A stretch of 64,000 nt of DNA from a virus. The stretch lies in the IMG/VR virus record IMGVR_UViG_3300006310_000001; one strand, given 5' to 3'. The notes beneath the pieces were generated by a model that did not search any database, was not told the DNA's origin, and was given only the letters and a program-made list of their open reading frames with translations. Each line of letters opens with the position of its first letter. Positions within the stretch are counted from its first letter, which is position 1. The position numbers and the translations under genes are program-made. Positions 55,073 through 62,873 of the stretch are shown here, in pieces.

Positions 55073-55714
55073 TTATACTCGTTCTACTTTTATTTTTTTA
55101 TTGAAAGAAGGAAATGTAATGCTTGGATCCATATGATGTTCTTTTCGTGGTCTTGTTTTATCACCATAACCTACACCCATTAACAAAAATACATCTTCAC
55201 CTAATATACTTTTAACTTTATCTCCATCAAAACACTGGCAACAACCTGATTCATATCCTAAAAGATTAGCAGTAAGAGTTAAATATCCAGCAGCAATTCC
55301 AATTGCACGATTTTCATCCGTCTTTCCGTCTTCAGAATTTCTTTCTTCTTCTATGCCAAGTTCATTCTCTTTATCCGTTCTGGCTTCCATATTATCATCT
55401 CTATCTTTTGCAAAAACAAATAATGTATTTGCTAATACTTGAGGATTAGTAATTGTTAAATAATTACCATCTTTGTCCTTTTGCAAACGATATGTAAAAC
55501 CATCTGTAGCATTATGTATTGCTTCAATCTTATTACGGTCTTGTGTATATAGAACTTTATAAAATACACGGTTTTGTTTAGATGAACATTGTGTCACCGC
55601 CTGTTCCATCGTTTTAATATCTTTATCTGGAATTTGTTTAGATAAATCCCAATTCCTATTACATTGCTGTGATTTTGCAATTGTTCTTTCTAAAAATTTA
55701 TTATATTCACTCAT
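55073..55714 (-). CDS. Nitroreductase-like flavoprotein
   Basis: SQQCNRNWD.SKQIP...A...C.SKQN...Y; IGIAAGYL.LTANLLGY.SGCC.CF; LLMGVGY. Confidence 0.7.
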   Translation of the reverse strand: MSEYNKFLERTIAKSQQCNRNWDLSKQIPDKDIKTMEQAVTQCSSKQNRVFYKVLYTQDRNKIEAIHNATDGFTYRLQKDKDGNYLTITNPQVLANTLFVFAKDRDDNMEARTDKENELGIEEERNSEDGKTDENRAIGIAAGYLTLTANLLGYESGCCQCFDGDKVKSILGEDVFLLMGVGYGDKTRPRKEHHMDPSITFPSFNKKIKVERV

Positions 55715-57563: not shown

Positions 57564-57770
57564 ATGAAAAAACTACTTGAATATTTAACTATCATTTTAT
57601 CAATAGTAGGTACTTTCTGTTTAATCGGTGCTGTCGGCGCAATTGACGGCGGTTATAACGGAGTTCCAATGAACGATAATTGGTTTTTATGTGGTACTTT
57701 GTCATTGTTAGGAATTGCTATGTTTATTTTAGCATTATACTCGCAAACGTTGTATTCTGAACAAGACTAA
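57564..57770 (+). CDS. Small two-TM membrane protein
   Basis: Two hydrophobic helices; strong promoter and SD. Confidence 0.7.
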   Translation: MKKLLEYLTIILSIVGTFCLIGAVGAIDGGYNGVPMNDNWFLCGTLSLLGIAMFILALYSQTLYSEQD

Positions 57771-58639
57771 CCACTAGATTTTAATAAATAGCCTATCTCT
57801 ATTCCTAGCTCACTTGCTTTATCAATAGTTTTAGATGATTTTGAATAGAATCTATCTTTACCATCTGGTGAAAATAGTTCTGCTTCAAGATTAATCGTAT
57901 TACCATCAATATTTGCAAATACACCTACCGCTGTATCACAATCTCCTTCTATAATTTTTAAAACGTTTCTTTCTGCCTTAACACAATTGTGTGTTTCTGT
58001 ATGATTAACACTTTTTAATAACTCAATTATCTCTTCATCATTATCTCTACATTGTAAGGCAATAACACCTTGTCCTGCACACGGTATCATTTCACTAGTA
58101 GAAAAAGTTTGAGAAATCTTGTTCTCTAAACCTAATGATTGAATTCCTGCATAAGACAAAATAATAGCGTCAAATAAACCATCATTTAGTTTTTTAATTC
58201 GTGTATCAACGTTTCCTCTTATCAACTTACATATAAGGTCTTTTCTTATATTCTTTAATTGGAATTCTCTTCTAAATGAAGAAGTACCAATAATTGAATT
58301 TGGAGCTAAATCTTTTAAGTGTTTATTATCTCTACTAATTAAAATTTCTCTTGGATCGTTTCTTTCTAAAAAACAGTTTGTTAATAAACCTTCTGTTTCT
58401 TCCGTTGGCATATCTTTTAATGCGTGAACGGCTATATCTATTTTTTTATCTAATAATTCAACTTCTATCATCTTGGAAAAGAGACCTTTACCTCCAGCTT
58501 CAGAAAGTCTTACATCTTTAAGTTGGTCACCTTTGGTTTCAATTTCTTTGATAAGTATTTCTTTGTTTAATACTGCTTTAGCTTTTTCAGCATAGATACG
58601 TGCTAATTTACTTCCTCTTGATCCTATTGTGAGCGACAT
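57767..58639 (-). CDS. hemC: Porphobilinogen deaminase (HMB synthase)
   Basis: IGSRGSKLA, TKGD, GGKGLF, DIAVHALKDMP, GTSS.RR, RGNVDTR, GQG, AER, cofactor Cys in EGDCDTAVG. Start moved to ATG 58639. Confidence 0.95.
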   Translation of the reverse strand: MSLTIGSRGSKLARIYAEKAKAVLNKEILIKEIETKGDQLKDVRLSEAGGKGLFSKMIEVELLDKKIDIAVHALKDMPTEETEGLLTNCFLERNDPREILISRDNKHLKDLAPNSIIGTSSFRREFQLKNIRKDLICKLIRGNVDTRIKKLNDGLFDAIILSYAGIQSLGLENKISQTFSTSEMIPCAGQGVIALQCRDNDEEIIELLKSVNHTETHNCVKAERNVLKIIEGDCDTAVGVFANIDGNTINLEAELFSPDGKDRFYSKSSKTIDKASELGIEIGYLLKSSG

Positions 58640-59424
58640 AATCGTCTTGCACCATAAGTTATCATATAACAAGCACCTGCTCTTTTGAATATGTGATATG
58701 TTTCTTCTAAACTACCAGGCGCACCAATACCTAACCATTCTCCAGATGTTTGATATACACCTACAGGTTTCTTTGTAATATTTCTTATTGGTTCAATTAA
58801 GTCTAAACTTGTCATACCAGGTTTTACCATTAATTCATCTGCGCCATCATCTGAATATTTTATAGACCTTATAATTGCCTTATGTCTATCGCTAACATCT
58901 AATTGATAGGGTCTATGAATACCTTTTGGTATCTTCATTACATCACGCCAACCTCTATAAAATGTTGAACGAAATTTTGTACTATAACTCATTACAGGTA
59001 TCTGACCATTATTAATTGATTTAATATTCTTAACTGTATTGTCTTGACAATCACTTGGCGCTATTGTAGCACCTGACGCTGTGTAAATCTCTAAAGCTGA
59101 TTGTAGTAATAGGTCATCTGTTTTTTCTTGGTCTCCTGTTACACAACAATGTCCATCGTGGGTATAAGAACATAAACATACATCAACATTTAATTTTATA
59201 GGTATATGTGATAGACGTTGTAAAGAGTGAGCAGTTTCACACACTTTGTCAAAGTTAAATAACTTAAATTCAGGTATGTAAAATAAAAGAAATTCTTTTA
59301 CTCCTAAATCAATATCTTTCTTAACACGTTCTTTGACATCTTTTGCACTAAAGATTTTATTATCTTCTCCTAGTCCAGTTTCTCTTGTAGAGTTACTAGC
59401 AAAGATTGGTTGTATTAATCTCAT
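58624..59424 (-). CDS. hemB: Porphobilinogen synthase (ALA dehydratase), compact Zn-type
   Basis: DVCLCSYTHDGHC (Zn triad), APSD, MSYSTKF and MVKP (Schiff-base lysines), YQLD, YQTSGE; only 266 aa. Confidence 0.9.
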   Translation of the reverse strand: MRLIQPIFASNSTRETGLGEDNKIFSAKDVKERVKKDIDLGVKEFLLFYIPEFKLFNFDKVCETAHSLQRLSHIPIKLNVDVCLCSYTHDGHCCVTGDQEKTDDLLLQSALEIYTASGATIAPSDCQDNTVKNIKSINNGQIPVMSYSTKFRSTFYRGWRDVMKIPKGIHRPYQLDVSDRHKAIIRSIKYSDDGADELMVKPGMTSLDLIEPIRNITKKPVGVYQTSGEWLGIGAPGSLEETYHIFKRAGACYMITYGARRLCRSQ

Positions 59425-60254
59425 TTTGCTGACTTTGCTAACATTTGATGGTTTCTTTTATACATCAATGCTGTTCGTTGTTGTTCTTCGTGAGGTGCTA
59501 CTAATTTAAATTTAGATATACCCATTTTCTCATACATAGGTAAATCAAAATAAAATTCACTCCAAGTTATATCATCATTATAAAAAGTACGTTCCATACC
59601 TAAATGAATTAAACTACATATCATTCCTTTTCTTTCTTCTCTATTAATTTTAGAAGTTGTACCATAACAAACTTTACTAGGACAATTATAAGAACACTCT
59701 ATGTTCATAAACAATCTTAATAAATCTTTTCTCTTAATACTTTCTATAAACTTTAAATCATCATTACTATGAATAGGTAAAACAATTGTATCGTATAAAT
59801 TCTTTGCAACAACTTTTTCATAATGTTCATTGTCTGTAATATCTTGTATGCAACTTGCTTCTATTTTATAATCAGGAAAATCATTTCTAATATATTCAGC
59901 CAACTTATCAGTTGCTGTAATAACTGCATTTCCTTTTCTATGATATTCTTTTAAAAACGGTTTACTTTCTTTATACTTATCATCTGTTATAAATTTATTC
60001 TGTAAAGTAAGTTTAAGACCAATACCCTTATCATAAATCCATTCAATATCTTTCTCAAACATTTCTGGAGTTTCTGCAGGACGTCCACCGTATAAAGGAC
60101 AATGTTCTTCCGTTTGTCCAAAAACAGAATCTATATCATCATAGCCAAATGAAAAATTAGAATGTTCTTCTGCGTGGCGTATATGACTATCTAAAAATGC
60201 TTTGATATGTACGTCCCATTGTTTTCTTGCTGAACAAGATATTACTCTTCCCAT
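59421..60254 (-). CDS. U32-family-like Fe-S protein of unknown function
   Basis: YGGR, GIGLKLTLQN, AVITATDKLAEYIRNDFPDYKIEAS, DTIVLP, LFMNIECSYNCPSKVC, later MIC, GISKFKL; follows the U32 TIM-barrel motif order. Confidence 0.6.
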   Translation of the reverse strand: MGRVISCSARKQWDVHIKAFLDSHIRHAEEHSNFSFGYDDIDSVFGQTEEHCPLYGGRPAETPEMFEKDIEWIYDKGIGLKLTLQNKFITDDKYKESKPFLKEYHRKGNAVITATDKLAEYIRNDFPDYKIEASCIQDITDNEHYEKVVAKNLYDTIVLPIHSNDDLKFIESIKRKDLLRLFMNIECSYNCPSKVCYGTTSKINREERKGMICSLIHLGMERTFYNDDITWSEFYFDLPMYEKMGISKFKLVAPHEEQQRTALMYKRNHQMLAKSAK

Positions 60255-61021
60255 ATCGCACCTGGTGGCATAGACATTAATATTGCTTCAGGATTTCCTC
60301 CACTTCTCAATCCAAACTTTGTTCCTCTATCATACATTAAATTAAATTCAACGTATCGTCCACGTTTTAATAGTTGTGTATACTTATCTTGCTTCGTATA
60401 TTTTAAATTCATCTTTGGTGTTATAATCTCTTTAAGTAATTGACAAAAGGTTCTACCAACATCTTTAACAAATTCAAAATGTTTCTTACCATATTTGTAA
60501 TCAAAGAAGATACCACCTACACCTCTTGTTTCTTCTCTATGGGGTAAATAAAAATACTCATCACACCATTTCTTATATGTTTTGTAATAAAGTTTATTAT
60601 GTCTATCACATAATTGTTTTAATCTGTAATGCCATAAATTTCTTTCTACATCATCTTTCAAACACGGTGTCATATCTGTACCACCACCAAACCAACTTTT
60701 TTCTGTTTCAATATATCTTGTATTAAAATGTATTGCAGGTACTTTAGGATTCTTTGGATGTAATACTACTGATACTCCTGTTGACCAGAAGTTTCTACTA
60801 TGTTTTGTACCAGGGATTTCTTTTGCGAAGTCTTTTGGAAACTTACCTACAACATTACTAAAGGTGACACCTCCCTTTTCAATCACGTCACCTTTAATTG
60901 TTTTAAAGTTACCAAATTTCCATTTGTTATCTTTAAATTTTGCTTTAGTTTCTAACTCTTCAATAGTCTGACAAATTGATTTTTGCAATTCAATAAACCA
61001 TTGCAACGCTTCTTGTTTCAT
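60242..61021 (-). CDS. hemF: Oxygen-dependent coproporphyrinogen III oxidase
   Basis: EKGGV.FS.V, GVSVVLHPKNP.VP..HFN.RY, WFGGG.D.TP, WCDEYFYLPHR.E.RGVGGIFFD, RGRYVEFNL.YDRGT.FGL. Confidence 0.96.
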   Translation of the reverse strand: MKQEALQWFIELQKSICQTIEELETKAKFKDNKWKFGNFKTIKGDVIEKGGVTFSNVVGKFPKDFAKEIPGTKHSRNFWSTGVSVVLHPKNPKVPAIHFNTRYIETEKSWFGGGTDMTPCLKDDVERNLWHYRLKQLCDRHNKLYYKTYKKWCDEYFYLPHREETRGVGGIFFDYKYGKKHFEFVKDVGRTFCQLLKEIITPKMNLKYTKQDKYTQLLKRGRYVEFNLMYDRGTKFGLRSGGNPEAILMSMPPGAIWEE

Positions 61022-61024
61022 TAT

Positions 61025-61762
61025 CTAGTCTGTTTCTGCTGCTACTTTCTGAGCAAACTGTTCCAATTTTCTTTCTAATGGGTCTTGAAGCACTTTTGAT
61101 GTATCTTTCGGATGATTAAAGAATAAATTACCTGATACACTTACTCTTGTTCCTGGTGTATGAAAAGGAATTACTTGATGTCTTAATTGTGCTGGAAATA
61201 TCCACAGTCCACCATTTTGGGGTTCATAACCATAGGAGTGTTCTGTCCATTTTGGATTAGAGTGTTCACCATAATGAAACGTTATTCCACCAGGACCAAA
61301 ACTCTTGCCTTTATACTTTTTTCTTTCTTCTGTTAAGTCTGGTGTCTTTAAAAATATAACCCAAGATAACATACCACCGTGTGTATGTTCAGGATTATCT
61401 TCGTTCTCTTTCATATAATTAATCCATAAATCTATGAGTGTGAATTTAGTTGAAAACTGTTCTTCTGTAAAAGGTTTTCCAATATACTCCGCTGAACTTT
61501 GTACATAATCATCTATGTATCGTTGAAACTCTTTTACAAACCATTCTTTATCTTCTTTTGTATAACCTCGTTGGTCTTCCATTATACCTGCTAAGTTACT
61601 ATTGCCCGAACCTTCACGACTTTTATTACCTCGGTCCTCAAGTCCTTCTAATAATTCTTCGTGAGCAAAATACATAGCCACATAAGGACCAAAATTTAAA
61701 TTGCCACCTTTTTGTTCTTGTTCTATCTTTGTGTTTTTGTTATCTAGTTCTATCATATCCAA
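61025..61762 (-). CDS. Putative 2OG-Fe(II) oxygenase (TIGR02466-like)
   Basis: WINYMK...NPEHTH..LSWVIFL, IFPAQLRHQV.PF, RVSVSGN. Confidence 0.75.
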   Translation of the reverse strand: MDMIELDNKNTKIEQEQKGGNLNFGPYVAMYFAHEELLEGLEDRGNKSREGSGNSNLAGIMEDQRGYTKEDKEWFVKEFQRYIDDYVQSSAEYIGKPFTEEQFSTKFTLIDLWINYMKENEDNPEHTHGGMLSWVIFLKTPDLTEERKKYKGKSFGPGGITFHYGEHSNPKWTEHSYGYEPQNGGLWIFPAQLRHQVIPFHTPGTRVSVSGNLFFNHPKDTSKVLQDPLERKLEQFAQKVAAETD

Positions 61763-62865: not shown

Positions 62866-62873
62866 TATTTATA
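62866..62873 (-). promoter_or_regulatory. T4-type late promoter heading the run of genes that ends in hemF-hemB-hemC
   Basis: Exact TATAAATA on minus strand. Confidence 0.7.

Follow-up and report, generated by a model that had tools for sequence, protein, structure and literature searches.

An established phage tetrapyrrole cassette is valaS-hemO-pcyA/X, for which a deregulated phage enzyme has been proposed (Wegner et al. 2024, PMC11480375). Closer to the locus treated here, the pelagimyophage PMP-MAVG-4 has been noted in passing to encode a coproporphyrinogen oxidase and a porphobilinogen deaminase (Zaragoza-Solas et al. 2020, PMC7029224), and its heme genes may be the present cassette or a close relative of it. 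We analyzed a 64,000-nucleotide stretch of viral DNA, the IMG/VR record IMGVR_UViG_3300006310_000001 (hereafter the window), in which hemF, a gene for a U32-fold protein, hemB, and hemC stand in succession. The molecular data support an evolutionary scenario in which this cassette was built up from separately captured genes in a variable slot of a T4-like phage genome, and they place its hemB in a clade of phage porphobilinogen synthases (PBGS) that lack the N-terminal arm. Both the armless phage HemB and the mix-and-match cassette seem undescribed so far; our search of the phage hemB and PBGS literature, which reached few subscription papers, found nothing relevant.

The carrier of the cassette is a T4-like pelagimyophage, a phage of SAR11. 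The window contains portal, sheath, terminase, baseplate, and PAAR genes, and its TerL is 79% identical to that of Pelagibacter phage Mosig and 64% identical to that of HTVC008M. The base composition of the four cassette genes is phage-like, and their GC content at third codon positions (GC3) resembles that of core phage genes. Family searches identify three of the four genes (E-values of 5e-90 for HemF against PF01218, 1e-45 for HemB against PF00490, and 4e-71 for HemC against PF01379 and PF03900). HemF scores 332 bits against the equivalog NF003727 (cut-off 297), and its conserved motifs align with those of solved enzymes; HemC scores 316 bits against TIGR00212 (cut-off 164), possesses both domains, and aligns at the cofactor Cys and at the catalytic Asp and Arg motifs. 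Close homologs of hemB, hemC, or the U32-like gene were not found among GenBank phage isolates, where the matches are only 26-42% identical, have a host-type look, and in many cases lie on short unannotated records.

The content of the slot is fluid. We defined the slot as the interval between a 2-oxoglutarate (2OG)-Fe(II) oxygenase gene and a convergent small open reading frame (ORF), and we compared it across 20 related contigs, near-duplicates included. Around hemB, which is present in all 20 (in part an effect of ascertainment, as the contigs were mostly retrieved via hemB), an Asp-hydroxylase-like gene occurs in 11, hemC and the U32 gene in 9 each, hemF and a DUF454/YbaN gene in 8 each, and hemE in 2; separate searches with hemF, hemC, and U32 recovered no intact slot without hemB. 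The position after hemB is taken alternately by hemC or by the Asp-hydroxylase gene, and the exact order hemF-U32-hemB-hemC recurs in 5 of the 20. In the isolate Mosig, the same interval holds a phosphate ABC transporter gene, an Asp-hydroxylase gene, and tRNAs. Synonymous divergence (dS) from the relative L002 differs by gene (hemF, 0.007; U32, 0.17; hemB, 0.09; hemC, 0.017), so the cassette genes recombine singly. With nine arrangements in the 20 contigs and gene-specific dS, the fixed content, fixed order, and shared history of a co-inherited operon are wanting. The ratio of nonsynonymous to synonymous substitution rates (dN/dS) lies between 0.06 and 0.46 across the four genes, except for one hemB pair with just five differences. 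Phage flanks, recovery in independent assemblies, and purifying selection together support reading the locus as a phage auxiliary metabolic cassette. Two further observations concern individual slot genes. The hemF gene is near-invariant (dS 0.007-0.05; L001-L006, L015) while the flanking 2OG gene reaches a dS of 0.38, which looks like a recent gene-specific sweep; and in L011 and L020 the ATG-started hemB ORF spans 123-124 amino acids (aa), within a frame of 283-284 aa read from a non-ATG start.

The cassette genes also have distinct origins. Our host comparison set comprised 201 Pelagibacterales genomes, of which the unpublished G113 is one row on which no claim rests. HemC is 76-79% identical in amino acids and 78.6% in nucleotides to that of Ca. 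Pelagibacter, from which, on these identities, hemC was captured. HemF, by contrast, is 65-68% identical to that of one Pelagibacterales group and 56-60% identical to that of the HemC-nearest genomes; the 39 genomes with HemF at 65-68% and the 51 with the closest HemC do not overlap, and HemC is only 39-41% identical in five tested genomes of the HemF-nearest group. The HemF and HemC trees agree with separate donors, and a topology that joins the HemC-nearest genomes to the phage HemF is rejected by an approximately unbiased (AU) test (p = 5e-12). Host hem genes are dispersed: hemC of Ca. Pelagibacter adjoins hemD with none of hemB, hemF, or hemE within 5 kb, the 5-kb surroundings of hemC in 80 bacterial loci likewise contain none of these three, and the complete genome G002 has hemB at 546, hemF at 1027, hemC at 1234, and hemE at 1273 kb. 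The HemE of a sister phage is 84% identical to that of G002. The U32 gene was not found in the 201 Pelagibacterales genomes. Separate donors, dispersed host genes, and the missing host counterpart of U32 together provide good support for assembly within the phage lineage, as the initial annotation had suggested; the case that would have refuted it, the same order at high identity in a bacterial chromosome, was not found.

The initial annotation had also called a compact operon of four co-oriented genes, and the ORFs bear out its overlaps of exactly 13, 4 (ATGA), and 16 nt, provided that hemC starts at the ATG at 58639, where we set it (the TTG at 58672 chosen by the ORF finder precedes the region of homology). 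Its further step, that the overlaps betray co-selection, is not supported. Of the 59 pairs of same-strand neighbors in the window, 20 overlap, and the median gap is 4 nt; the junctions vary among relatives (hemF-hemB at +4 where the U32 gene is missing; U32-hemB at -4, -25, or +184; hemB-hemC at -16 or -19); and the genes come and go singly, with dS values up to 25-fold apart against the same relative. Overlaps this ordinary, together with a dS that is particular to each gene, leave co-selection of the block without support; the overlaps carry no special signal, and the ATGA junction is compatible with translational coupling.

Nor do the four genes stand alone as an operon: nine closely packed ORFs run from 62845 to 57767, with the four at the distal end, and 3 nt separate the 2OG-oxygenase gene from hemF. 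The late promoter box that heads this run, with its ribosome site, is found at the matching position in all nine relatives examined, and no minus-strand terminator-like site was found between the box and hemC. Given the conserved box, the uninterrupted run, and the convergent ORF that closes it, we infer that the four-gene "operon" forms the end portion of a larger unit that is probably transcribed late. As for the phage promoters first reported near the cluster, the T4 late box is positionally conserved, and the sigma-70-like matches stand at chance level in the window (37 versus 43.5 in shuffles). RNA libraries from four studies yielded short contigs that map onto the cassette genes, with strand and level unreadable and an origin from DNA possible; the RNA runs contain at most 15% of the cassette words, as contigs, one of which spans the U32-hemB junction without showing a single transcript.

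What is new in the cassette is its HemB. The protein matches PF00490 from profile position 27 onward and falls under the full-length equivalog cut-off, and its model superposes on solved PBGS chains from residue 26-41 (Z ~35, root mean square deviation [rmsd] 1.7-2.0). It belongs to a phage clade of proteins of 263-286 aa, 40-98% identical to one another and monophyletic in a quick tree (SH-aLRT 99). The active-site residues are conserved: the Schiff-base lysines K150 and K201 are present in 66 and 67 of the 67 members, respectively, and the zinc cysteines C83, C85, and C93 and the lid arginines R160 and R171 are kept in 66-67 of 67. The N-terminal arm is absent, the first barrel motif being preceded by 4 residues in 51 of the 67 and by at most 15 in the others. 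Position 186, whose column we take from E. coli PBGS to be the allosteric-Mg ligand, is R, S, or another residue and never E in the 67 phage proteins, while it is E in ordinary SAR11 HemB. The latter is 30-34% identical to the phage HemB and full length, with an Asp-type metal loop and the Mg glutamate. In the PBGS enzymes studied so far, the arm-barrel interface of the octamer holds an allosteric Mg or Arg and stabilizes the closed lid (PMC7729013). The phage proteins share with Zn-dependent, Mg-independent PBGS (the human/yeast type and bacterial relatives labeled Acidobacteria and Bdellovibrionales) the TIM barrel, the two lysines, the three cysteines, and the lack of the Mg glutamate; they differ from Zn-type PBGS of 320-340 aa in lacking the first 25-40 residues, in a shortened late helix region, and in forming a clade of their own.

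The nearest cellular HemB type, ~40% identical, already lacks the glutamate. It is encoded within hem operons, both in marine bacteria and in a minority lineage of Pelagibacterales (5 of the 201 genomes), whose HemB is the sister of the phage clade in the quick tree (SH-aLRT 98), a placement open to composition bias. The five genomes of that lineage (L197-L201; G007, G009, G023, G027, and G178) differ from other SAR11 in having their hem genes clustered as hemC-hemB-hemE and in a HemB of 300-302 aa that is of the Zn type and partly shortened; on this evidence their hem genes were probably replaced by transfer. The readable contexts of clade hemB genes are phage-like, with gp23 or a T4-type polymerase-like gene as the neighbor, or within islands on contigs of up to 250 kb. 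Tracing failed for one armless HemB labeled Pelagibacteraceae (P0016), which lies on a contig of 2.6 kb. In the large T4-like contigs L205, L208, and L221 (6001-6855), a lone armless hemB directly follows the major capsid gene gp23.

Taken together, these data make it probable, in our judgment, that the cassette is a gene-by-gene assembled auxiliary slot that tops up host heme synthesis late in infection around an old phage hemB. Under this scenario, a long-resident phage hemB would anchor the slot, and hemC and hemF (and hemE in sister phages) would have been gained separately from Pelagibacterales, entering and leaving singly. The nine-ORF run would be transcribed late; HemB and HemC would convert host-made 5-aminolevulinic acid (ALA) into hydroxymethylbilane, HemF would ease a later step of the pathway, and the host would contribute ALA synthase, HemD, HemE, protoporphyrinogen oxidase, and ferrochelatase. 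A heme supply for respiration could thereby persist past host shut-off. The phage HemB, which has no arm, no Mg glutamate, and Zn in place of the Asp-type site, would for these reasons escape the octamer and Mg control of the host enzyme, while the U32-fold gene would ride on the shared transcript, its product probably acting on another substrate. We advance a wider proposal more tentatively, as somewhat less likely than not: that the marine-phage PBGS clade, having lost the arm behind the octamer/hexamer switch, works without regulation as a dimer or monomer, that several phage lineages separately recruited mid-pathway genes around it, and that control of heme flux would be a widespread takeover strategy in SAR11 and other plankton.

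Several observations weigh against a late heme-synthesis slot. The cassette enzymes do not constitute a contiguous pathway, armless hemB often stands alone, as beside gp23, and dN/dS of ~0.3 for hemB and U32 is moderate. The converse AU test does not reject a grouping of the phage HemC with the HemF-nearest genomes (p = 0.17), a result weakened by a long branch. In the PBGS enzymes studied, full activity requires an octamer, and the octamer in turn requires the arm (PMC7729013); since the arm makes the octamer interface, an armless HemB must work differently or poorly, and by analogy with the studied enzymes it may be a weak enzyme.

Among the alternatives, we consider it unlikely that the cassette serves iron or porphyrin handling more than respiration, by drawing iron into or out of tetrapyrroles so as to feed the many Fe-dependent enzymes of the phage or to shift host heme-sensing iron regulation. 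The slot does neighbor 2OG-Fe(II) oxygenase, Asp-hydroxylase-like, and DUF454/YbaN genes, another phage cassette combines hemF and hemB with heme oxygenase, and pelagiphage ferrochelatase-like genes beside 2OG oxygenases have been tied to iron regulation (PMC9599517). The mid-pathway enzymes, however, bind no iron, 2OG neighbors are common in such islands, and the slot contains neither ferrochelatase nor heme oxygenase; hemD and hemH (ferrochelatase) were not found in five partial relatives (14-36% complete).

It is distinctly unlikely, in our estimation, that the armless HemB is a low-activity enzyme, an ALA sink, a poison of the host octamer, or a protein with a second role, with hemC and hemF recent and weakly selected arrivals. 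Lid closure in known PBGS does require the arm-made octamer interface, hemB lacks any other hem gene in 10 of the 20 slot contigs and in other phages, and dS of hemF is very low across otherwise divergent phages. Against this stand the retention of catalytic, zinc, and lid residues over the whole range of identity in the clade, and the placement of hemC, whose enzyme uses the HemB product, next to hemB in this lineage, with a HemC of another origin joining hemB in a second cassette; moreover, the PBGS of R. capsulatus, a metal-independent hexamer, is highly active without forming an octamer (PMC535902).

The U32-fold protein poses a separate question. Its AlphaFold2 (AF2) model (pLDDT 86) has the U32 protein Mk0906 (5d88) as its top match in two structure searches (Z 14.0, rmsd 4.0, 213 aligned residues; next Z 10.7). 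Four cysteines (187, 191, 196, and 213), candidate ligands of a 4Fe-4S cluster, are invariant, and the pattern recurs in 113 of 121 distant relatives; the protein is a putative Fe-S enzyme. Pfam and other sequence profiles, PF01136 included, returned no match for the protein; 2 of 86 relatives matched PF01136, at a best E-value of 0.014, and one atlas look-alike cluster is 16% PF01136. The U32 name derives from the fold, the sequence-level tests being blank. The protein has the fold and the four conserved cysteines in common with the U32 family (Mk0906; UbiU/UbiV, RlhA, TrhP), and it differs in being 13-16% identical, below Pfam detection, and part of a mostly viral subfamily, with a Cys spacing of Cx3Cx4Cx16C. 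The spacing in UbiU/V is different.

We regard it as very unlikely that this protein genuinely belongs to the module, as an Fe-S enzyme that would work without O2 on a tetrapyrrole intermediate or in the synthesis of quinones for the same respiratory chain. Fold and cysteines would suit such a role, characterized U32 proteins are Fe-S proteins required for O2-independent hydroxylations (PMC10990095), and one other phage (L024) has the U32 gene immediately before hemB in a different genomic context. The gene is nonetheless missing from 11 of the 20 slot contigs, hemF-hemB-hemC ones included, and was not found in the 201 host genomes; its close homologs lie mostly away from hem genes, by gp33 or among methyltransferases and 2OG oxygenases, and distant ones are fused to sulfotransferases, one of them in a lasso-peptide-like cluster. 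The likelier role of the U32-fold protein is that of a passenger in the slot, probably a modifying enzyme. In the bacterial, lasso-peptide-like cluster at L211:521-8200, a U32-like-sulfotransferase fusion stands beside PqqD, asparagine-synthase-like, and transglutaminase-like genes and is possibly an unrecognized tailoring enzyme.

Capture of the cassette as a single block from a bacterium, or host contamination of the assembly, we give almost no credence and consider largely refuted: cellular relatives of the HemB type do lie in operons (hemC-hemB-hemE-hemH-hemF-UPF0093 and hemC-hemB-hemE), and an ancient operon origin of hemB alone is possible, but the HemC and HemF of those operons are 28-29% and 54% identical to the window's, far under the other donors, their order differs, and phage genes border the slot in many independent assemblies.

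The heme-synthesis scenario draws further support from other phage-like contigs, which carry hemF-hemC-hemE-hemB, hemF-hemB-heme oxygenase, hemF-hemB, hemE-hemF-hemC, hemF-hemC, and hemF-hemE, with HemC, HemF, and HemE only 29-56% identical to those of the window lineage. That different captures reached similar sets argues for selection on heme synthesis, and does so better than the overlaps. Two of these loci merit description. In L219:2321-5852, hemF, hemC, hemE, and an armless hemB are surrounded by small ORFs; the partner genes are unrelated to those of the window, and no hallmark gene confirms a phage nature. In L202:4564-7372, on phage-like contigs, a run of OMP (orotidine 5'-monophosphate) decarboxylase, hemF, armless hemB, and heme oxygenase genes brings synthesis and breakdown together.

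Table 1. Coordinates of the cassette, its borders, and its candidate promoter in the window
Feature	Coordinates	Strand	Evidence
hemF, oxygen-dependent coproporphyrinogen III oxidase, 259 aa	60242..61021	-	PF01218; NCBIfam above cut-off; motifs
U32-fold protein, 277 aa, putative Fe-S enzyme	59421..60254	-	AF2 model; structure match; Cys census
hemB, armless Zn-type porphobilinogen synthase, 266 aa	58624..59424	-	PF00490; structure superposition; residues; tree
hemC, hydroxymethylbilane synthase, 290 aa from ATG	57767..58639	-	TIGR00212; identity to Ca. Pelagibacter
2OG-Fe(II) oxygenase, upstream border of slot	61025..61756	-	PF13759; phrog_81; kept in syntenic contigs
68-aa hydrophobic ORF, convergent, downstream border of slot	57564..57770	+	4-nt overlap with hemC stop; conserved in 29 loci
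T4-type late promoter box heading the gene run	62866..62873	-	Exact match, then GGAG ribosome site

Two other genes of the window lie outside the slot. A full-length gene for ribosomal protein L7/L12 (56624-56986, minus strand; above the TIGR00855 cut-off) is retained across syntenic contigs with low dN/dS. A nitroreductase-like gene (55073-55714, minus strand) lies between gp25 and gp6 in the window, is found upstream of the slot in other relatives (e.g., L009:2824-3561), and is missing in most.

The gene order and the overlaps are the least remarkable part of this locus; it is the armless HemB clade that merits work at the bench. PBGS is the model case of regulation by quaternary-structure switching, in which the N-terminal arm plays a central part, and a natural, conserved armless clade makes the efficiency of the barrel on its own directly testable. 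The cassette further illustrates clearly how a pathway cluster can arise from separately captured genes, and its carriers infect the most abundant marine bacteria. PMP-MAVG-4 belongs to the same phage group, and PMP-A phages also encode L12, as already published (PMC7029224). The text of that study contains no hemB, gene order, origins, or U32-fold gene, and the supplements searched gave no match; the heme genes were there called unique to one genome, whereas the slot described here is widespread and variable. The valaS-hemO-pcyA/X cassette likewise occurs whole, broken, or as single genes, and hemB, hemC, and hemF are absent from the text of PMC11480375. That cassette covers ALA synthesis and heme breakdown, whereas the present one comprises mid-pathway steps, so that phage tetrapyrrole genes, known so far for the two ends of the pathway (ALA synthase, heme oxygenase, and bilin reductases), now reach its middle as well.

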